Shown here one piece after another: positions 1-58,011 of a stretch of DNA of 64,000 nt. Each line of letters starts with the position of its first letter. The first letter of the stretch is position 1. Below the pieces are notes generated by a model. That model did not search any database. It saw nothing but the letters and a program-made list of their open reading frames with translations, and was not told the DNA's origin. Location: the NCBI GenBank assembly GCA_040384285.1, contig JAZKJN010000006.1, forward strand, positions 46,709 to 110,708, given 5' to 3'. The stretch comes from Patescibacteria group bacterium (GTDB lineage Bacteria; Patescibacteriota; Minisyncoccia; Phycocordibacterales; PALSA-1337). Position numbers and translations under genes: made by a program.

Positions 1-585
1 ATCACCACAAATCACAAGTACGGCATTCCCTGCCTTATAGGTGGCCTCCATGTGTGAAAGAATTTTTTCTCGAGTTATTTTTTGTAAATCTCTTATTTCT
101 CCAGTATTAAATTTGCCCAGACTTGAATTGGGAAAAAGTATTTTGAAGATAGCTCGCTGAGAATACTTCTCCGCATCGGCGGTAAATACGTTAATCTCTT
201 GTTCGATTATTTTTTTCTCTCTTTCTATATCAACTTCCTTCAAAAGAGGGTGCAACAAGACCTGAGAAATATAATCGAAGCCGACTTCGACATCTTCTAT
301 CATTGTTTTTGTCCAATATTCAACAGTCTCTTTTCCAGTAGCCCCATTCCTCTGCCCACCCTTTTCTTCGATAAGGCCCGATAGCTTTTGTTCACTGGGG
401 TACTTTTCTGTACCATCAAAAACTACATGCTCCAAAAAATGGGCTCCTCCTTCAGAACCCTTAACATCATAAATACTCCCTGCAATAATTCGAAAACTTA
501 AAGAGACACTCAAGCTTTGAGGTCTTTCGATAACAATCACTTGTAATCCATTACTTAACGTAAATGATGAAATTGATTGATTCAT
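1..585 (-). CDS. M16 family (insulinase/pitrilysin-like) zinc peptidase, N-terminal part. The gene runs off the window start.
   Basis: Reverse translation from the ATG at 585 gives MNQSISSFTLSNGLQVIVIERPQSLSVSLSFRIIAGSIYDVKGSEGGAHFLEHVVFDGTEKYPSE... It carries the inverted-zincin HxxEH motif (HFLEH) typical of M16 peptidases. No stop is reached before position 1. Confidence 0.7.
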   Translation of the reverse strand, partial: MNQSISSFTLSNGLQVIVIERPQSLSVSLSFRIIAGSIYDVKGSEGGAHFLEHVVFDGTEKYPSEQKLSGLIEEKGGQRNGATGKETVEYWTKTMIEDVEVGFDYISQVLLHPLLKEVDIEREKKIIEQEINVFTADAEKYSQRAIFKILFPNSSLGKFNTGEIRDLQKITREKILSHMEATYKAGNAVLVICGD

Positions 586-612
586 ATTGGATGTATAATA
601 CACTATTTTCTC

Positions 613-646
613 ATAAAAAATGGGTGTCTATTTCTAAACACCCATC
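613..646 (-). terminator. Rho-independent terminator downstream of the small-peptide operon.
   Basis: Minus strand reads atgggtgt-ttagaaatag-acacccat (8 bp stem) followed by tttttatgag. It lies between ORF-B and the M16 peptidase start. Confidence 0.5.
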
Positions 647-671
647 GTGAACACGATAACTATTGTTGAGG

Positions 672-758
672 TTAGTCCCCGGAATCCGGGCCGCTCCCGT
701 CATCGCCATCGTCGCCACAGCAGTCGCAACCGCCGTGACAAATGATTTTGTCTTGCAT
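672..758 (-). CDS. Small Cys/Asp/Gly-rich peptide (28 aa), ORF-B.
   Basis: ATG at 758 is preceded by AAGGAGA with a 6 nt spacer. Translation is MQDKIICHGGCDCCGDDGDDGSGPDSGD*. It is below the ORF-track size cutoff. It sits in a GC-rich block that contrasts with the AT-rich genome. Confidence 0.4.
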   Translation of the reverse strand: MQDKIICHGGCDCCGDDGDDGSGPDSGD

Positions 759-920
759 ATAAGTCTCCTTGTGTGCAAAGTTCTGGTCGTATCGAGCTAT
801 CCGGCACATACCGGTAGTTCTCCCCATTTTAGGGTTAAGTATTGGCAGGCCTAGTCTTGCAGATCGACCCCTGAACCAGAAGGACCAGTACTGTCGGTGT
901 GGTTGCGGGAAGAATTTTGA

Positions 921-1046
921 TTATTCACCATTCTCTCCTTCGCACGAACCTCCGCGACCGCCGTCATCTTCTCGGCACCGGACAAATCTCAGTGTACCAT
1001 CCCACTCCCCATCGACCTCGCCCTCAGGACTTTTACGAGTTTTCAT
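921..1046 (-). CDS. Small acidic Gly-rich peptide (41 aa), ORF-A.
   Basis: ATG at 1046 is preceded by AAGGAGG with a 6 nt spacer. Translation is MKTRKSPEGEVDGEWDGTLRFVRCREDDGGRGGSCEGENGE*. It is co-oriented with ORF-B and the M16 peptidase. Confidence 0.4.
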   Translation of the reverse strand: MKTRKSPEGEVDGEWDGTLRFVRCREDDGGRGGSCEGENGE

Positions 1047-1126
1047 GCTCGCCTCCTTGTGCTCGACGCTTTACCCGACTAAAGTGTGCACACCCATGCC
1101 TACTCTGGGTATCGCTATCTATACAT

Positions 1127-1154
1127 AGCATATACTTATAAATAGCAAAGTCAA
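1127..1154 (-). promoter_or_regulatory. Putative sigma70-type promoter for the small-peptide transcription unit.
   Basis: Minus strand reads TTGACT, 16 nt, TATGCT, about 70 nt upstream of ORF-A. Confidence 0.3.
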
Positions 1155-1281
1155 TGCGCTAACTGTGGATATCTTTTCTAATTCAAAATCTTGATTCCCA
1201 AAACTAAAATACCCATAAGTATGAGGGCGAAAGATGTAAGTAATCCAAGTGAGGCCTCATGCATAATTATCAAATTATAAC

Positions 1282-1826: not shown

Positions 1827-2054
1827 ATGAGTTCCCTTTTCTCCCACTGGCGAGAACAAGTACAACTTGCACATCGTCTCGTTGACGCAGCGCCCGCCCC
1901 AGAACTACCAAAAACGGATGCCCTCTGTCAGGCGATCTGGAAAGGAGGAGTATCTCTCACTCCTGAACAAAGAGCTGAAATCGAAGAAATAACGAAACAT
2001 CAGCGCCGAGTGCACCGAGAGAAAGTTGCCTATCTTCTGGCAACTCAAGACTAA
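1827..2054 (+). CDS. Hypothetical small protein.
   Basis: 75 aa ORF. AAGGAAA lies upstream of the ATG. No recognisable domain. Confidence 0.4.
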   Translation: MSSLFSHWREQVQLAHRLVDAAPAPELPKTDALCQAIWKGGVSLTPEQRAEIEEITKHQRRVHREKVAYLLATQD

Positions 2055-2136
2055 GAAGATGTCTCATCAGGAAGCCCTCTCGAACACAATCGGGGGGCTT
2101 TTCTTTTATAAAATTGTATTGTACAGTGTGGAAAGT

Positions 2137-2361
2137 ATGAAAAAAGGAATGTTTCCGAAAACAGCCGAGAAGCTTCACGACAAGCGTAAAGCCGAAGCTC
2201 AACAGAGAACATTCATCGATAGACTTGTCGATGAGAAAGTTGGAGAACTCATAGTCACACGACACCCACGCACCTACGTGCACCATCCTCCCCACTTTGG
2301 TGGAGTCGAAACACTCCCCGAAATTCAGGCAAAATACAACACATCAGACCGAAAGGTCTAG
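2137..2361 (+). CDS. Hypothetical protein. An alternative start is at 2026.
   Basis: ORF 2026..2361. The internal start MKKGMFPKTAEKLHDKRKAEAQQRTFIDRLVDEKVGELIVTRHPRTYVHH is preferred because it avoids overlap with the previous ORF. Confidence 0.35.
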   Translation: MKKGMFPKTAEKLHDKRKAEAQQRTFIDRLVDEKVGELIVTRHPRTYVHHPPHFGGVETLPEIQAKYNTSDRKV

Positions 2362-2530: not shown

Positions 2531-4129
2531 CTATATCGCAGTATCAATCTCCATAAAGAAGGTCGATCCCTTACCTTCCCCTTTTGATTCTGCCCAGACA
2601 CGTCCCTTGTGTGAGGTGACAATTTCCTTTACCACAAAGAGTCCGAGTCCCGTACCGTAGATATTCTGCTTGTTGGCATTATTTGCACGGACAAACTTTG
2701 CAAAAAGCTTTGGCATCACTTCAGGCGACACTCCCACACCGGTATCTTTAACAGAGAAAATAATCTTGTGGAGCTCTGCGTTTTTAGTAAGCGCCACCTC
2801 GATACTTCCTGATGGAGTGTATTTGAGAGAGTTGTCGATGAGATTTGCGATCACCTGCTTGAGCTTGTCGCGGTCTGCCTTTACATCAAAGTGTTCGTTC
2901 TCTCCCGATGGAACTGTCATAAAAGAGAACTTTAGTCCTGTCTTTTCAATATTTGGCTTGAGCTCAGCAATCACATCTTTTACCATGGCACGTAGATCAA
3001 GCACGGTAAATGAGTACACCATCGTACCGAGCTCGATGCGAGAAATGTTCAAATAGTCGTCCACAATGTTTGCAAGAGTTTTTGATGAGTCGTAAATACG
3101 TGTCACCGCCTCCTTCATCGTAGGCACAAGCTTGCCCATCTCACCTTCCAAGATGAGCGATGAATATCCCTTCATGGCAGTCAGAGGCGCACGAAGCTGA
3201 TGCGTCGCAAAGGAGACGAATTCAGATTTCTGCTTATCCAGCTCCTTTAGACGAGTGTTCGCGTCAGTCAGATCCTTTGCAAGCTTTTCAATATGTTCGC
3301 GTTGGTTAACTTCTTTGATGACGGAACGGATGAGAAAGAGACTAAAGATGGCCATGAGAACCAAAATTAAAAAATTTAATAGCCAATCAATTAGTTCTGA
3401 GGATTTTAATAGATTAAATAATGAAATAAGAACAAGAGCGGTTGAAAATATTTGAGCAGATACCACTTTAACGTTAAGCATCTTATACTTCAAGACCCCG
3501 TAAACCATGAATACTATGTAAAAAATAACCAGATAATTTCCAAAAGGATAAACACTAAATAATTGTGGGAAAAAATTTGTGACGCCCCCAAAATAAGCGA
3601 AGGTAGAAGCTATAAGAATATTTCTTACCTGGAACCGCACCAAACTTCCCCTTGGAGCTTTTATATATTGTTGAACCAACAACCCAAGAGTCATTACGGC
3701 AAAAATTACAAAGTAAATAGGAAAAATAATATAATAATTACCAGGATTCACCCAGTAAAAATCATACAGCATTTTCATGCCGTCTTTAAATAGATGACTG
3801 AAACTAAAAATAGAGAGTAGTAGTGCTGCTATAAACGAAAAGTACCTTGTTTTCATGCCACGCAAATGCAAGAGTTCAAGAATAAGTAGAAGAGATAGGG
3901 GAGGCAAAAAGATAGCAGCAATATCAAGAAGATACTGCCACAATAATGCAGTTTCAATATTAGATGACAATGTAACTCCGGCCAAACCAAGCGACCAGAG
4001 AGAGAAGGAAATCGATGAAAAAAACCAAGCACGATTAATTTTGTTTTTTCTATCAGACCTATAAACAATCAGCCCGAAAATTATACTACTAAAGCACAAT
4101 ATTAGACTTGAAACGCTGAAAAGATTCAT
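2531..4129 (-). CDS. Sensor histidine kinase (7TM N-terminal region, HisKA, HATPase_c).
   Basis: 532 aa. The N-terminus is multi-pass and hydrophobic. The H-box is FATHQLRAPLTAMKGY. A C-terminal ATPase region is present (GTGLGLFVVKEIV...GSTFFMEI). Confidence 0.85.
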   Translation of the reverse strand: MNLFSVSSLILCFSSIIFGLIVYRSDRKNKINRAWFFSSISFSLWSLGLAGVTLSSNIETALLWQYLLDIAAIFLPPLSLLLILELLHLRGMKTRYFSFIAALLLSIFSFSHLFKDGMKMLYDFYWVNPGNYYIIFPIYFVIFAVMTLGLLVQQYIKAPRGSLVRFQVRNILIASTFAYFGGVTNFFPQLFSVYPFGNYLVIFYIVFMVYGVLKYKMLNVKVVSAQIFSTALVLISLFNLLKSSELIDWLLNFLILVLMAIFSLFLIRSVIKEVNQREHIEKLAKDLTDANTRLKELDKQKSEFVSFATHQLRAPLTAMKGYSSLILEGEMGKLVPTMKEAVTRIYDSSKTLANIVDDYLNISRIELGTMVYSFTVLDLRAMVKDVIAELKPNIEKTGLKFSFMTVPSGENEHFDVKADRDKLKQVIANLIDNSLKYTPSGSIEVALTKNAELHKIIFSVKDTGVGVSPEVMPKLFAKFVRANNANKQNIYGTGLGLFVVKEIVTSHKGRVWAESKGEGKGSTFFMEIDTAI

Positions 4130-6296: not shown

Positions 6297-7538
6297 GTGT
6301 ATAATTTATATCACATGGGATCAGAAATACATGCCTTAATGGATTTAGCTGTGGGGTTAATTACGGCGGCACTAGGAATTGGCATATATGTTCTAGCAAA
6401 AGAATCTAGATCCGCAAAATTATTCTCATTAATATGCTTTTCTGTTTCTATTTGGAGTCTATTTGTATCGATAAACACTTTCCCTTTATTTACAGAATCA
6501 ACGGCCTTTACATTTAAATTTAGTTATTTTCTTGCAGCAACCCTTGGAACACAATTTGTAATATTCTCAATACTATACCCTCGAGATCAGAAAGTGGGTT
6601 CTAGGATTGTTTATGGAGTAATTCTGATTGAAATTATTTTATTATATTTAATTTCTTTTACAGACTTGATAATCTCTCAACCAACCATCTCCTTGGAAGG
6701 TAATCATGTGGGTTGGGGGTATGGTCCGCTGTGGTTTATATTCGATGTTTATTTTTCTGGTTGTTGGCTCTATGGAATTTATAATTTATACAAAAAAATA
6801 GGACAGGATGAAGAAAAGTTTTCTCGAAGAAACCTGCAATTTATGTTACTCGCATTCATTGTAGGACTCATACCGCCTAGTATTACTGGAATTATATTGC
6901 CTCGAATCGGAATTTTTGAATACAATTGGTCAAATCCCCTTTCAAGTTTGCTTTGGATCTCCATCATCGCCTACTCGATCATACGCTACCATCTCTTTAG
7001 CATCAAATTGATCGCCATCCAACTGGTCACCTTCTCCTTCTGGATATTCATGCTCATTCGCATTTTCTTTGCCGCAAACCGACAGGAGCTTTTCATTGAA
7101 GTCGGTATCCTCTCCATTTCAGTGATTCTTGGTATCACTCTCATTAGAAGTGTTTTGCATGAGATCAAGCAGAGGGAGCGTATTGAAGGCCTGGTAAAGG
7201 ATCTCAAAGGTGCATATGCAAACGTCAAAGACCTCAATGATCATCTTGAGCAGAAAGTGGAGGCGCAGACACGAGAAGTACGTGCTTCATACGAAGTGGA
7301 AAAGAGAGCTCGGCAGGAGCTTTTGAAACTCAATGAGACGAAGAATCACTTCATCGGCATGGCACAGCATCAGCTTCGTACTCCGGTGACTGGTGTGAAG
7401 TGGCAGTTGGAGGCGATATTGGGGGATCTTTCTCGAAAAGATAATGAGGAAATACGAGAAGAACTCGAGGCGCTAGCTGGTTCAGTAAAAATACTCACAA
7501 CTACTATAAATAAAGTAACTGATATTGCTGAAGAATAA
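6297..7538 (+). CDS. Histidine-kinase-like protein lacking the catalytic ATPase domain (7TM N-terminal region plus HisKA only).
   Basis: 413 aa. The N-terminal membrane region is similar to that of the 2531..4129 kinase. The H-box is MAQHQLRTPVTGV. The ORF ends about 70 aa after the H-box and no HATPase_c motifs are present. Confidence 0.6.
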   Translation: MYNLYHMGSEIHALMDLAVGLITAALGIGIYVLAKESRSAKLFSLICFSVSIWSLFVSINTFPLFTESTAFTFKFSYFLAATLGTQFVIFSILYPRDQKVGSRIVYGVILIEIILLYLISFTDLIISQPTISLEGNHVGWGYGPLWFIFDVYFSGCWLYGIYNLYKKIGQDEEKFSRRNLQFMLLAFIVGLIPPSITGIILPRIGIFEYNWSNPLSSLLWISIIAYSIIRYHLFSIKLIAIQLVTFSFWIFMLIRIFFAANRQELFIEVGILSISVILGITLIRSVLHEIKQRERIEGLVKDLKGAYANVKDLNDHLEQKVEAQTREVRASYEVEKRARQELLKLNETKNHFIGMAQHQLRTPVTGVKWQLEAILGDLSRKDNEEIREELEALAGSVKILTTTINKVTDIAEE

Positions 7539-26856: not shown

Positions 26857-27507
26857 ATGAAAAAGAACGCTATCCTCCCCCTCTCCATTATCATAGTCAT
26901 TGTTGTACTAGGCTCATATGTTTTTAAACCTCAAGAAAAACCTGAGACTCGAATAACTTCGGCCACCTCAACAAGCCCCACACCGATTATCGAAAAGAAA
27001 CCCCTTACACCCGATGAAATAATAATGAATTCAACAATGGTTGTTGTAGGTCCGTATGACAAAGTCCCAGAACTCCATTGTCCCGAAGGTTACGGAGCTA
27101 TCGCAATAGCGGGTAGAAATGACACACGAGCGTGGTGTAGTCCCCTTCCTGCAGTAATAGAGCGACCCGTCTATGGTCTATATGGTAAATATACTACATA
27201 CGAGAGAATAGACGAACGAATCTCATCCGAAGTAAGGACTTGTACGGCTTTCACTGTATACGAAGGGAGCAATGAAAATATCTCGGAATATATCTCAAAG
27301 ATTAAAAGAGGAAATACCGTCAATCATCTCGATAAAGATGGCCGTCTCGTTTTAAATATCAAACCAATCCAACTTCCCCTTGAGGATCATGCGCTTCTTG
27401 TTAATTCCACCTCATCGATCACACTAAAAGTAAGGAGTAGGGTTTTGGAAGGAGGAGATGCAGATGCTTGTGAAAGTTTTGTGGAATTGGTTTCTGTTGA
27501 GAAATAA
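26857..27507 (+). CDS. Secreted hypothetical protein.
   Basis: Signal/TM segment followed by a Cys-containing domain. Confidence 0.45.
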   Translation: MKKNAILPLSIIIVIVVLGSYVFKPQEKPETRITSATSTSPTPIIEKKPLTPDEIIMNSTMVVVGPYDKVPELHCPEGYGAIAIAGRNDTRAWCSPLPAVIERPVYGLYGKYTTYERIDERISSEVRTCTAFTVYEGSNENISEYISKIKRGNTVNHLDKDGRLVLNIKPIQLPLEDHALLVNSTSSITLKVRSRVLEGGDADACESFVELVSVEK

Positions 27508-29358: not shown

Positions 29359-31035
29359 TTAACCCCTCGGCCCACACCCCAACAACACCCTCCCCAACCG
29401 TATATGTAAATACGAAACATTTGGCCCCACTTTGTTTTTGACCTTCGACAGGAGTACTTCATCATCTGTCTCAAGTATTTCATTGATCGCCTTCTCTATC
29501 TTCTTCCAATGAGCAAATGATATTTCTTTTTTAAGATATGCGATATCAGGTTCGACTCCTTCGGAGATGAGTTTTTCGATATGGGTAAGTATTGTCTCTG
29601 TTGTCACTCCTCGCTCGCTCGCCATGTCTTTGAGACTTTTTCGCTCCTCGATCAAAAGTGCAGTGAGCTCATGTGGTGCAAGTTTAAGTCCACTTCCCCC
29701 CTTGCTCTTTGGTACCGCCCATTCGAGAAAATCTTTTTGCTCTCCGTGAAGTTTTTCAGTATTTTTTAAAATTGTCTTACGCGCAACACTTGATTGTTCC
29801 TGGAGTTCTCGATCGAAAAGAAGAACATCTTCGTGAACCATAAGGGCAGTAGCGTTGAGACCGAGTATACTCAACCCTGCAAGCGACCTCACTCGCGACA
29901 AAGCCACATATCCCATCCCTGGCTCAAAAGCTTTTGAAAGATCCACCTCCACCGCATCCAAGCTCATCCCCTGGCTTTTGTGCACCGTGATCCCCCAGGC
30001 ATGACGAAGTGGGTACTGAGTGATCTCAGCTTTTACCTTGCCATCCTCCTCGATCTTCCATGAAGCAGGCTCGATGGTGATCTCGCGCCCTCCTGTCGTG
30101 CGTATGACGGGGTGTAAACTTTTCTTGCAGGAAACCACCATACCGAGCGTACCGTTTACATATCCTTCTTCAAAATTGTTCTTCACACACATCACCGCTG
30201 CACCAAGTTTCAATTTCAGTTTCTCTGGCGCAAGACATGACTTTTTTAAAATCTCAACAATAGGAAGATGACCTTTTGCAGACATCACATAGAGAGCCTC
30301 TTCGGGACTCTGGAGCTTTTCGAGCTCGAGTGCATTTAAAGCATCTACATCCATGTTGTGGGTAAAGAGTTTGGTAGCACGAACGCCCTTCTCTGGTGTC
30401 TTTCCCATCCGTGTCTCAAGTAGTTTTTTAGATGCATCACTCACATCCCCACTTCTGATTTCATTTAAAATATCTATCATCGAGTCATCTTTTTGGCGGA
30501 ACTGTTCGCTCAGATAGCAGACAGTAAAGTCTCCTTGTTTCCACGCCTCTCCGTGATATACAAACTGTGTCTCTTCACCCGATTCCGAAAAACCTCGCTG
30601 TACTGGAGGAAGCTGAAAGAAATCCCCCACAAGCACCACCTGCACACCACCAAAAGGGTCACTGGTACCTTTCATTGTTCGGAGCACCTGATCCACAAGA
30701 TCAAGTCGGAAATGATGGAGCATAGAGACCTCATCGATGATGAGCACTCTCACCTTTTCAAAACGTTTTGAAAGATATGGTTTCTCAGCCATGGCTTCGA
30801 GATCACTTTCATCCAAAGTATCCTTCACTCCAATCCCCGCCCAGGAATGTATGGTCATCCCTCCCATGTGCGTCGCAGCAATACCGGTCGAAGCAGTGAT
30901 CCCTGGATCAATATCGTTCTTTTTGAGATATGCAATGTAGGAATTGGTAAGATGCGTCTTGCCGCTTCCAGCAGGACCTGTCAAAAACACATTGCGACCA
31001 GTCTTTAAGATTTCTAGGGCTTCGAGTTGGGTCAT
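29359..31035 (-). CDS. PIF1/RecD-like SF1 ATP-dependent DNA helicase with a C-terminal HTH-like extension.
   Basis: Walker A VFLTGPAGSGKTHL. DExx-like LIIDEVSM. C-terminal pattern typical of Pif1 (AWGITVHKSQGMSLD). Confidence 0.75.
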   Translation of the reverse strand: MTQLEALEILKTGRNVFLTGPAGSGKTHLTNSYIAYLKKNDIDPGITASTGIAATHMGGMTIHSWAGIGVKDTLDESDLEAMAEKPYLSKRFEKVRVLIIDEVSMLHHFRLDLVDQVLRTMKGTSDPFGGVQVVLVGDFFQLPPVQRGFSESGEETQFVYHGEAWKQGDFTVCYLSEQFRQKDDSMIDILNEIRSGDVSDASKKLLETRMGKTPEKGVRATKLFTHNMDVDALNALELEKLQSPEEALYVMSAKGHLPIVEILKKSCLAPEKLKLKLGAAVMCVKNNFEEGYVNGTLGMVVSCKKSLHPVIRTTGGREITIEPASWKIEEDGKVKAEITQYPLRHAWGITVHKSQGMSLDAVEVDLSKAFEPGMGYVALSRVRSLAGLSILGLNATALMVHEDVLLFDRELQEQSSVARKTILKNTEKLHGEQKDFLEWAVPKSKGGSGLKLAPHELTALLIEERKSLKDMASERGVTTETILTHIEKLISEGVEPDIAYLKKEISFAHWKKIEKAINEILETDDEVLLSKVKNKVGPNVSYLHIRLGRVLLGCGPRG

Positions 31036-31090
31036 GGAAGTAGTATAGCAAATGGTTAAGGCGGGCGATCATGAGATCGCCCGCCAGGGT

Positions 31091-56978: not shown

Positions 56979-57948
56979 ATTTCAAAAACTCTTTTGTCTT
57001 TTCTAGATAGGCCAACACATCTTTAATTCCCTGCTCTTTTCCTGTCTTGCTCCAATAAGGAAATTTTGTAGAGGCTTGGATAATGAGAGCAGCCTGAAGA
57101 ATCTTGCGATCAAGAACTAGACCTTTTTCGGTATAACCTTTTATAAGATGTTCGGCGGCCATGTCTGCAATCCCTCGTCCAAGAGCGGTAACAATAGCTC
57201 GAGCAAGGTCCATGTAGGGATGACTGAGTATTGGTACCGGATCAATAACCGTAAAAGGTTCTGTGGCGAAAATATTCTCATATGTATAATCATTGTGACA
57301 ATATGAACTTTCTTTTGACGTTCCCACAAACGCAATAAAAACTTCTCTGGCGCGTGCCAAGTCACCGTGTTTTTCTGTATCAAAGAAAGCCTCAGGATCT
57401 TCCTTGAGCTTTTTTCTATCCATTTCGTTTTCAAGCCATAGATCAAACGTAGGAGATGTACCGACTCCATTGTCCAGAGTTCCAAATCCTTTTCCTTTTG
57501 CAGAGTGCATCGTGTATAAAATACTTCCCATCTTCACAAAAATTTCCTTGCGAATCATTTCTCCTTTTTTATATGTGCCATGAAGTGTTGGAGCATCTAT
57601 ATACTCCATGAGCATGTAGTATCTCTCGCCAATCATTCCTTCTTCAAAAATATGTGGGACTTTTACCCCAACCTTCTCCCAAGTTTTTAAGAAGGTGCCT
57701 TCAGTCGTATACAGAGGCAAATTACTCAATGGAATTTTTAACACATACTTTGCATCAGGTATTTCAATGATACAAATGAGAGAAGATGCTCCTTTTTCTG
57801 GGAAAGAAACTTTTACATCTTTGTCCTTAAAAAGATTGTGGGTACTGAGAAATTTTTCGACCTGTGGGACGAGTTCAGGACGACGTTTATTATAGTCAGC
57901 TTGAACCTCATGGGGAGAAAGGGTGGGTTGATTGAGGAAGGTTATCAT
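56977..57948 (-). CDS. Protein-kinase-like phosphotransferase (APH/choline-kinase family).
   Basis: Brenner motif CHNDYTYENIF and a downstream D-x-x-x-motif. 323 aa. Confidence 0.65.
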   Translation of the reverse strand: MITFLNQPTLSPHEVQADYNKRRPELVPQVEKFLSTHNLFKDKDVKVSFPEKGASSLICIIEIPDAKYVLKIPLSNLPLYTTEGTFLKTWEKVGVKVPHIFEEGMIGERYYMLMEYIDAPTLHGTYKKGEMIRKEIFVKMGSILYTMHSAKGKGFGTLDNGVGTSPTFDLWLENEMDRKKLKEDPEAFFDTEKHGDLARAREVFIAFVGTSKESSYCHNDYTYENIFATEPFTVIDPVPILSHPYMDLARAIVTALGRGIADMAAEHLIKGYTEKGLVLDRKILQAALIIQASTKFPYWSKTGKEQGIKDVLAYLEKTKEFLK

Positions 57949-58011
57949 AGGTGAAAGTATAGCAGAGTGGAGAAATAAAAAAACCGCATGACCCAGAGGG
58001 TCAATGCAGAT

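Follow-up and report, generated by a model that had tools for sequence, protein, structure and literature searches.

The block flagged by a first-pass annotation on the minus strand of a 64-kb stretch of DNA from uncultured Patescibacteria (the whole stretch is here referred to as the window) most likely represents a small operon, transcribed separately, that encodes two tiny and highly acidic peptides. Two real small-peptide genes are the best reading of the block, with a probability of roughly 0.6. Every sequence feature described earlier for a two-ORF mini-operon upstream of an M16 peptidase was found on the minus strand, and the proposal that the block encodes small acidic peptides is supported as the most likely one. 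The 28-aa gene (ORF2) is unannotated; the 41-aa ORF1 has a GenBank entry as a hypothetical protein (MES3031261.1). Sequence comparison establishes the anatomy of the block and the conservation of its promoter. It also shows that one close relative retains the start and frame of ORF1, and that one distant relative retains the initiation region of ORF2 together with its location beside M16.

Anatomy of the block

The promoter (1114..1154, minus strand) consists of the annotated boxes TTGACT (1154-1149) and TATGCT (1132-1127), which are separated by 16 nt and match the consensus at 9 of 12 positions. Overlapping it is a 21-nt core that does not vary, TATATGCTATGTATAGATAGC (1134-1114), which includes a 16-bp near-palindrome, GCTATGTATAGATAGC, a probable operator. 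Next to the promoter lies a DnaA-box-like site, ATATCCACA (1164..1172, minus strand), and relatives carry a perfect box, TTATCCACA, at the same place. A hydrophobic small ORF of 28 aa, MHEASLGLLTSFALILMGILVLGIKILN (1178..1264, minus strand), precedes the block in the same direction, has a TATAAT 9 nt 5' of its ATG, and is possibly the first cistron; its codon score of 0.238 per codon is matched by only 2% of shadow ORFs. At the other end, the intrinsic terminator (613..646, minus strand; -15.9 kcal/mol) had been described as clean with an 8-bp stem; it is indeed present at 646-619 with a U6 run, but the scan gives a stem of 12 pairs closed by a GAAA 4-nt loop. With a conserved promoter at one end and a strong terminator at the other, the unit is self-contained, as had been suggested. 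There is no terminator after ORF1, and ORF1 and ORF2 are therefore probably co-transcribed. A spacer of 138 nt (783..920, minus strand; approximately 52% GC), for which no homologue was found, separates the ORF1 stop from the ORF2 initiation region. The GC content of the block, 51-55%, is only about 2 sd higher than the window mean (43.3%, sd 5.5%, 200-nt windows); since approximately 40 other windows equal this level, its description as conspicuous in an AT-rich genome was overstated.

Both annotated ORFs are present on the minus strand. ORF1 (921..1046) encodes 41 aa with a pI of 4.7 and 2 Cys (MKTRKSPEGEVDGEWDGTLRFVRCREDDGGRGGSCEGENGE), and ORF2 (672..758) encodes 28 aa with a pI of 4.05, 5 Cys and 1 His (MQDKIICHGGCDCCGDDGDDGSGPDSGD). 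Both peptides are highly acidic, with many Gly, Asp, and Glu residues, and are thus probably disordered. The codon usage of ORF1 is typical of the genome (score 0.206, reached by only 3.7% of out-of-frame shadow ORFs), while that of ORF2 is poor (-0.19 per codon, below 99% of real gene segments; GC3 68%).

Each ORF is preceded by a near-consensus Shine-Dalgarno (SD) sequence, AAGGAGG for ORF1 and AAGGAGA for ORF2, located 5 nt from the ATG, or at the previously reported 6 nt if counted from AAGGAG, and the 9-mer CACAAGGAG is common to both sites. An SD-like motif, even a 4-mer, occurs upstream of only 7 of the 63 window genes, and many window genes have a TATACT-like box shortly 5' of the ATG. 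Counting both strands, the 64 kb contain only eight instances of the pattern AAGGAG-N5-8-ATG, two of them within the block, which, like the conserved promoter core, points to more than a chance arrangement. As most window genes have no SD, the two strong ones in the block are unusual rather than routine. In the ORF1 initiation region (1036..1058, minus strand), the SD (1058-1052) is followed by a predicted hairpin formed by CGAG (1051-1048), the loop CAUGAAAA with the AUG inside it, and CUCG (1039-1036). The ORF2 initiation region, AACTTTGCACACAAGGAGACTTAT (759..782, minus strand; 24 nt), includes the SD and is predicted to fold into an AAG-GAGA-CUU hairpin within an outer stem, UUUGCA/UGCAAG.

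The block is followed by the M16 (HxxEH) metallopeptidase gene (1..600, minus strand), as annotated, with its ATG at 585, an HFLEH motif and a match to Pfam PF00675 (E = 7e-25); its first 195 aa lie in the window. A -10-like TATTAT (600-595) is located 9 nt 5' of this ATG, which is the spacing of leaderless-type starts in this genome. A protein search with the M16 N-terminus gave one match, of 50% identity.

Conservation among close and distant relatives

Close relatives (L092-L094, L096, and L097) were found through YqeY, which is 87-93% identical across genomes with differing cargo. In L092, L096, and L097, no position of the promoter core differs from the window, and L093 and L094 depart from it only slightly. 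L092, whose YqeY is 92% identical, contains the 5' part of the block with 86% identity over 179 nt, compared with 71% at yqeY third codon positions, and approximately 48 nt from the -35 box into the leader are identical to the window. In this one lineage, ORF1 keeps its ATG and stays open through the 17 codons that can be compared. Non-synonymous changes come first, altering three amino acids, and codons 7-17 carry three synonymous changes and V to I, giving 3 synonymous versus 4 non-synonymous changes in 17 codons. The SD of ORF1 is weaker in L092 (AAAGGCAGG), and the stem of the AUG hairpin becomes CAGG/CUUG, i.e., one compensatory pair and one G-U pair.

In L093, L094, L096, and L097, the same invariant promoter stands ahead of a 27-aa membrane peptide, MPNGGIESLGFLAVALIGLVAFVMWIA. 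In L096 and L097, this is followed by an SD-led 38-aa acidic peptide and then a terminator; the L093 and L094 contigs end before the corresponding point. ORF1 and the 38-aa peptide both begin with MK, contain WDGxL, and end in an acidic tail rich in Gly, and this weak similarity (p approximately 0.04-0.07) suggests that ORF1 may be the counterpart of the relatives' acidic peptide. A YqeY synteny search in GTDB genomes found the block in none of the 80 loci fetched, its place being taken by RmuC.

Support for ORF2 comes from a distant relative, represented by L082, L083, L100, and L101, which are one organism and were counted as one lineage. Here, an SD, a hyperacidic ORF of 45 aa, a hairpin with a U-run, and M16 follow each other in the same order as ORF2, terminator, and M16 in the window, and the M16 proteins of the window and L100 (426 aa in L100) are 55% identical. 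The annotated placement of an acidic peptide gene directly upstream of M16 thus recurs in a second, distant lineage, together with a homologous initiation region. Between the window and L082/L100, the initiation regions agree in 21 of their 24 nt, and their local alignment score of 15 exceeds the 8.95 ± 1.06 of shuffles, with only one in 3000 shuffles reaching 15; nine other M16 upstream regions gave background scores. The SD, spacer and ATG of ORF2 are kept ahead of the acidic ORF in this one lineage. Since the conserved nucleotides lie in different reading frames in the window and L082, they indicate an untranslated initiation region, with the next ATG as the start. In L100, the SD/AUG region is predicted to fold into a CAUAAG-GAGA-CUUAUG hairpin. 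The 45-aa peptide, which has 1 Cys, is the positional and compositional counterpart of ORF2. Acidic ORFs of 18-60 aa with an SD in front are uncommon: 713 kb of related DNA yields only ORF2, the L082 type, and a small number of others with the look of in-gene artefacts.

The L082 counterpart was recognised by reading ORFs; a synteny search of M16 loci in JGI metagenomes gave no nucleotide similarity to the block by blastn or nhmmer. M16 genes that have no peptide-like neighbours in related genomes had been named as evidence against the proposal, and the picture is mixed: L082/L100 has the peptide, but L084, L085/L086, L087-L091, and L099 have none. Each of the small-ORF comparisons is backed by a single independent lineage (L092 for ORF1 and L082/L100 for ORF2).

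The peptides themselves match no family. A chimeric query of all block ORFs gave no homologue in 5.8 billion protein clusters, and HMMER with ORF1 against 1.84 billion representatives matched only ORF1 itself. Pfam and NCBIfam gave no match to the peptides at E <= 10. The four peptides align through composition, and their similarity to each other is not significant beyond it (p = 0.07 to 0.56 versus shuffles). A short basic-hydrophobic-Cys segment precedes the acidic tail as RFVRCR in ORF1, KIIC in ORF2 and KMIRCK in the peptide of the distant relative. In their size (28-45 aa), in having an SD and a start codon of their own, in being restricted to a lineage and in lacking a family assignment, the block peptides resemble orphan bacterial small-ORF proteins (<50 aa, including small membrane peptides). 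They differ from these in being extremely acidic and soluble, in being paired with a membrane peptide in relatives, and in that one type recurs beside M16 with a conserved initiation-region hairpin.

Alternative readings of the block

A structured non-coding RNA with coincidental ORFs had been put forward as an alternative, i.e., the approximately 500-nt transcript or its first 320 nt would act as a functional RNA, e.g., a highly diverged RNase P RNA of the candidate phyla radiation (CPR), and the ORFs would be incidental. The whole-transcript fold (z = -2.6) and the ORF1 AUG hairpin, which still pairs in L092, are consistent with this. The size of approximately 320 nt (1093 to 771), the own promoter, the AAAGUCC motif and drawable P1, P2, and P4 also recall class A RNase P RNA (RF00010), and hand threading gives P1-, P2-, and P4-like helices in canonical pseudoknot order on AAAGUCC, which with this anchor only 0.2-1% of shuffles do. 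CPR RNase P RNAs can, moreover, escape Rfam; thresholds had to be lowered for 10 of 35 circularized CPR genomes (PMC8172020). Against this, neither RF00010 nor RF00011 gave a match, whether 486-851 nt were scanned (E <= 10) or the entire window (E <= 3), while the RF00010 positive control, E. coli rnpB, also the source of the RF00010 consensus, scored 318.6 bits. The same helix arrangement without the anchor occurs in 88% of shuffles, so that only AAGUCC makes it unusual and the helices as such are at chance level, and the near-invariant AAAGUCC is changed to GAGGUCC in L092. P4 forms either 4 pairs in the canonical register, with no bulged U, or 8 bp with a C-A mismatch, no bulge and a shifted register, and P5 and P7 were unpairable in a by-eye check against the RF00010 consensus. 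RNase P RNA was therefore rejected: P1, P2, P3, and P4 could be threaded by hand, but the S-domain and a canonical P4 fail to form. Local z-scores over 1080-921 are positive, and local folding of the ORF1 RNA is no better than that of shuffles (z approximately +0.6 to +0.95). ARAGORN and Rfam, the latter at gathering thresholds and E <= 10 on the block and at E <= 3 across the full 64 kb, found only three distant tRNAs, and no known family, including tmRNA, SRP RNA and 6S RNA, matched the block; a tRNA with a group I intron, a group II intron, tmRNA, and SRP RNA were also unsupported on inspection by eye. As relatives, in addition, place peptide genes behind the same promoter, a functional RNA is considered unlikely.

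Decidedly unlikely, too, is a variable accessory cassette in which a membrane peptide and an acidic partner (toxin/antidote or bacteriocin/immunity-like) are controlled by the operator and the adjacency to M16 is incidental. The pairing of the 27-aa membrane and 38-aa acidic peptides behind the invariant palindromic promoter in relatives, the window's own membrane ORF just upstream, the differing cargo among genomes whose YqeY is 87-93% identical, and the end of the contigs of the closest relatives (L092-L094) approximately 200-230 nt upstream of yqeY would all fit such a cassette; however, none of the peptides matches any family, and it leaves the conserved ORF2-type gene beside M16 in L100 unexplained. 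Several other origins were rejected for the block: terminal repeats of a mobile element did not rise above chance-level short matches, six-frame fragments compared by tblastn with the relatives and with the window itself gave no match expected of a decayed gene, and blastn against phages and plasmids gave none either.

The order of short ORF, terminator and M16, kept in two lineages, could also reflect a leader-peptide attenuator, in which ORF2 and its L082 counterpart, through their Asp, Gly, and Ser codons, would control terminator read-through into M16. As in trpL, hisL, and pheL, a biased short ORF dominated by few amino acids is closely followed by an intrinsic terminator, the ORF2 stop codon lying 25 nt ahead of its stem, and then by a gene. 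Unlike in those systems, no antiterminator was evident (in thermodynamic predictions for two sequences, a fold without the 3' arm pairs at most 3 nt of the 5' arm competitively), a separate -10-like box precedes M16 at leaderless-gene spacing, and the peptide of the relative is longer (45 aa). ORF1 and the relatives' 38-aa peptide, moreover, have no M16 after them, and attenuation is regarded as very unlikely.

The annotation had suggested either a precursor-peptide plus protease module or a metallothionein-like pair, and neither is borne out. In a RiPP-type module, ORF1 and ORF2 would be precursors that are modified and trimmed by M16 as the leader peptidase. An ORF2-type peptide adjoins M16 in two lineages, the peptides have cysteine, and a short acidic Cys peptide gene beside an HxxEH M16 gene on the same strand is reminiscent of SboA-AlbE/AlbF, PqqA-PqqF, and PttA-PttP1/PttP2; the subtilosin pathway is served by the M16 proteases AlbE/F. 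Unlike these systems, the locus has no modifying enzyme such as a radical-SAM or YcaO protein nearby: CxxxCxxC is absent from every ORF of at least 150 aa in the 64 kb, in agreement with the earlier remark that no rSAM partner is visible, neighbors at 1.3-13 kb belong to housekeeping families (Pfam), and the approximately 5 kb on each side of M16 in L100 hold only Fic, L27, L9, S41 protease, and CorA, with no maturase. The NCBIfam scores of the window's M16 are far under the PqqF, pitrilysin, and YfmH cutoffs (91 bits versus a cutoff of 320 bits for PqqF), which makes it, by sequence, a generic rather than a PqqF-type protein. It forms its own unit, parted from the peptide gene by the terminator and a separate promoter, and M16 is a single gene in L100, whereas the M16 proteases of class III lanthipeptides, PttP1/P2, are a heteromeric pair (PMC10885120). 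A conserved leader or core is absent, the Cys positions are not conserved, and Pfam/NCBIfam precursor models give no match to the peptides. With a modification enzyme, a known-family precursor and a dedicated M16 peptidase all lacking in the window and in the approximately 5 kb on each side of M16 in L100, a RiPP locus is highly improbable. As for metal binding, ORF2 resembles the metallothioneins SmtA/BmtA in having 5 Cys and 1 His in 28 residues, but it is about half their length, no Pfam/NCBIfam family profile matches, and the Cys richness is not conserved (5 in ORF2, 2 in ORF1, and 1 in the L082 peptide); a bacterial metallothionein is not supported. Nothing shows the block to be an antibiotic-type (RiPP) or metal-binding system.

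Proposed mechanism and meaning

For the small operon, which is the preferred reading, we propose that a sigma-70-type promoter, overlapped by the invariant near-palindromic operator and with the DnaA box beside it, would drive one mRNA of approximately 500 nt ending, 34 nt short of the M16 gene, at the strong intrinsic terminator. On this mRNA, the 41-aa ORF1 and the 28-aa ORF2 would form two cistrons, each translated by means of its strong SD. As the SD or AUG is predicted to lie in a hairpin, translation is probably gated. The predicted SD/AUG enclosures, AAG-GAGA-CUU in the window and CAUAAG-GAGA-CUUAUG in L100, are similar to SD-sequestering hairpins such as the fourU and ROSE-type RNA thermometers; they differ from these in having no sequence relation to the described families and no Rfam match. 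The peptides would actually be made, and the ORF2-type peptide may work with, or be cut by, the adjacent M16B-type peptidase. Such a functional link is only suggested by the data; charge complementarity between the peptides and M16 was considered and finds no support, because the M16 proteins are mildly acidic. Our best guess is a cytoplasmic polyanionic peptide that serves as a substrate or partner of M16, and not a modified natural product. A more far-reaching reading, a minimal patescibacterial peptide-protease module without maturase, in which hyperacidic Cys micropeptides encoded by mRNAs gated by a conserved hairpin (with SD and AUG sequestered) are substrates or partners of a solitary M16B peptidase, is quite unlikely; if it were true, the peptides might, e.g., be cut into a signaling or cation-chelating peptide for the episymbiotic lifestyle.

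At present, the block counts as an ordinary small-ORF locus specific to its lineage and is no evidence for a natural-product pathway. It also indicates that strong, structured SD initiation regions persist at a few genes although the genome is largely leaderless. Should the peptides prove real, a poorly understood bacterial group would gain a 28-aa gene that lacks annotation as well as an orphan hyperacidic micropeptide family, and the repeated occurrence of one type beside M16 would represent a simple peptide-protease pair.

Anatomy and surroundings of the block

In the direction of transcription (minus strand), the block is preceded by a hydrophobic ORF of 28 aa (1264..1178) and a DnaA-box-like site (1172-1164), and comprises a promoter (TTGACT, 16 nt, TATGCT; 1154-1127), an AAGGAGG Shine-Dalgarno (SD) sequence with ORF1 (41 aa; 1046..921), a spacer of roughly 140-160 nt, an AAGGAGA SD with ORF2 (28 aa; 758..672), and a hairpin of 12 pairs (646-619) with a U6 run to about 613. 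A TATTAT box (600-595) then stands ahead of the ATG (585) of the M16 peptidase gene, whose product carries HFLEH. All parts named in the first-pass annotation, from promoter to M16 start, are thus present; the block is indeed GC-richer (51-55%), but only modestly so against 43.3 ± 5.5%. ORF1 is already in GenBank (MES3031261.1, hypothetical protein, Patescibacteria MAG, 143,227-nt contig), and the codon score of ORF2 is poor.

Both SD sites share CACAAGGAG, and two of the eight AAGGAG-N5-8-ATG sites in 128 kb (both strands of the window) fall in the block. SD-like motifs (any 4-mer) precede 7 of 63 window genes, i.e., most genes lack one, and many have a TATACT-like box close 5' of the ATG, as in leaderless-type starts. 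GCTATACT/TATAAT-like -10 boxes lie shortly 5' of the ATG in, e.g., 2531-4129 (-), 26857-27507 (+), 29362-31038 (-), and 56980-57951 (-). These start regions suggest that mRNAs in this genome are predominantly leaderless; as the genome largely does without SDs, the two strong ones in the block are exceptional.

The neighbours of the block are housekeeping genes. Downstream of yqeY, two overlapping ORFs without a Pfam match are found (1827-2054 (+), 75 aa; 2026-2361 (+), 111 aa), and the equivalent place in L096, a close relative's locus, holds a 47-aa gene call and then a histidine kinase. The window itself has two HisKA_7TM-type histidine kinase genes (2531-4129 (-) and 6297-7538 (+)), the second of which (413 aa) has 7TM and HisKA domains with no HATPase_c match and may therefore be truncated.

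Promoter and cargo in close relatives

Searches of 5.8 billion clusters and of 1.84 billion representatives revealed no homologue of any block ORF, a YqeY-based synteny search of GTDB genomes gave nothing resembling the block, and JGI metagenome loci fetched through M16 had no nucleotide match to it. Useful contigs were members of the YqeY 90% cluster plus one 87% relative. In five such loci (L092, L093, L094, L096, and L097) a 21-nt core, TATATGCTATGTATAGATAGC (window 1114-1134), is invariant and contains a 16-bp near-palindrome, GCTATGTATAGATAGC, over the -10 region; all of them also have TTATCCACA, a consensus DnaA box, some 30 nt 5' of the core (window site 1164-1172). The core and palindrome look like an operator-controlled promoter. 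Despite this conservation, the downstream cargo differs.

The L092 contig stops within the block but includes its 5' part, of which 179 nt align and extend about 120 nt into the transcript. Identity over this part is 86%, versus 71% at third codon positions of yqeY, which indicates constraint. The ATG and frame of ORF1 are preserved, with three synonymous changes and one V to I in codons 7-17; codons 4-6 each differ, SD1 is weaker, and the stem at the ORF1 AUG shows a compensatory change (CGAG/CUCG to CAGG/CUUG). The other four loci have a 27-aa membrane peptide behind the same promoter. In L096/L097, AAAGGAGG comes next, then an acidic peptide of 38 aa (MKNITKIPWDGPLEIIIGWPTGGEETSGGTSEQGDLGN) with a terminator behind it; the contigs of L093 and L094 stop before that position. 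ORF1 and the 38-aa peptide share an MK start, a WDGxL motif, and an acidic Gly tail, a weak likeness (p 0.04-0.07).

Unannotated single-helix hydrophobic ORFs of 27-28 aa adjoin the acidic genes (window 1178-1264 (-), L096 270-350 (-), L093 41-121 (-)); they precede the promoter in the window and follow it in the relatives. Convergent on the peptide cassette in L096 is a gene (1-75 (+)) ending in ...NITVGNMLKLAGALNMELKQMIDF, which resembles the C-terminus of XRE-type helix-turn-helix regulators; its product may be what binds the palindromic operator. The closest relatives, assembled independently (ENA, Logan, JGI), all break 200-230 nt 5' of yqeY (L092 1-232, L093 1-198, L094 1-212), either at the edge of the variable cassette or slightly within it, and Logan contig L081 (SRR26324625), whose histidine kinase protein is identical to the window's, ends at window 1503. 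These breaks may reflect strain heterogeneity at the locus.

An acidic ORF beside M16 in a distant organism

For most M16 relatives there is no neighbouring peptide gene; the pairing noted in the first-pass annotation recurs in one organism (L082, L083, L100, L101), whose M16 is 55% identical to that of the window. About 150 nt 5' of this gene, on the same strand, ACATAAGGAGACTTATG heads a 45-aa ORF (MSKFIEKMIRCKSDDEDESDESGSPSYEGDSDSSGNGDGSTGEEV, net charge -10), followed by a hairpin with U-run, TATAAT, and M16. The 24 nt before its start match those of ORF2 at 21 positions, and the alignment score of the initiation region (15) was reached by 1 of 3000 shuffles (8.95 ± 1.06); nine other M16 upstream regions scored 8-10.5. 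As the matched nucleotides fall in different frames, what is conserved is an untranslated initiation region rather than extended coding sequence. Folding predicts an AAG-GAGA-CUU hairpin at both starts, each within an outer stem; in L100 the hairpin is longer and includes the AUG (CAUAAG-GAGA-CUUAUG). Elsewhere in 713 kb of related DNA, SD-led acidic ORFs of similar size hardly occur. The match, from one lineage, is the best evidence that ORF2 is a gene and that its adjacency to M16 is not accidental.

Further 5' in L100, ahead of the acidic ORF and M16, there is also a tandem duplication (about 760-1244 and about 1398-1872; unit about 640 nt), each copy with a GC-richer stretch overlaid by a spurious-looking 58-77-aa ORF and then a helical protein of 61 or 65 aa. 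The helical proteins share MKK.N..LYK.LESLSRDDLY... and match no family.

Possible functions of the block

A precursor peptide with its RiPP protease, as first proposed, found no support: no long ORF of the window has a radical-SAM motif, no Pfam or NCBIfam model matches the peptides, and M16 scores far under the PqqF, pitrilysin, and YfmH cutoffs. The M16 leader peptidases reviewed for RiPPs are heteromeric and accompanied by modifying enzymes (PMC10885120), whereas the distant organism's 9.8-kb contig (L100) carries a lone M16 gene, surrounded by Fic, L27, L9, an S41 protease, and CorA. The metallothionein-like alternative was likewise abandoned, given the lack of model matches and Cys counts that vary among the peptides. 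Pairwise peptide similarity is no greater than composition explains, and the M16 proteins are mildly acidic. An attenuator also seems unlikely, as the predicted folds show no convincing antiterminator and a separate -10-like box precedes M16.

That the block acts solely as RNA, with the ORFs coincidental, is improbable. Folding in sliding windows reaches significance chiefly at the terminator and near the start of ORF2, and is unremarkable over ORF1 (z +0.6 to +0.95); in the block, Rfam places no family even at E <= 10, and ARAGORN detects nothing. Since CPR RNase P RNAs can escape Rfam (Lui et al., PMC8172020), the block was threaded against RF00010 (bacterial RNase P RNA class A), with the consensus taken from a run of E. 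coli rnpB. Helices resembling P1, P2, and P4 can be placed around AAAGUCC in the right pseudoknot order; however, 88% of dinucleotide shuffles give the same helix order, which is rare (0.2-1%) only if anchored on AAGUCC. P4 in its canonical register has four pairs and no bulged U, P5 and P7 cannot be formed, and AAAGUCC is GAGGUCC in L092, so RNase P RNA was rejected.

In the favored reading, with a probability of about 0.6, the block is a regulated operon for small proteins and encodes two hyperacidic micropeptides, the ORF2 type being kept beside an M16B peptidase. The weak points of this reading are the ORF2 codon score and the small comparative sample. Within it, a peptide serving as substrate or partner of M16 is a tentative and rather doubtful proposal. 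The locus adds a new orphan case to a well-known type of feature.
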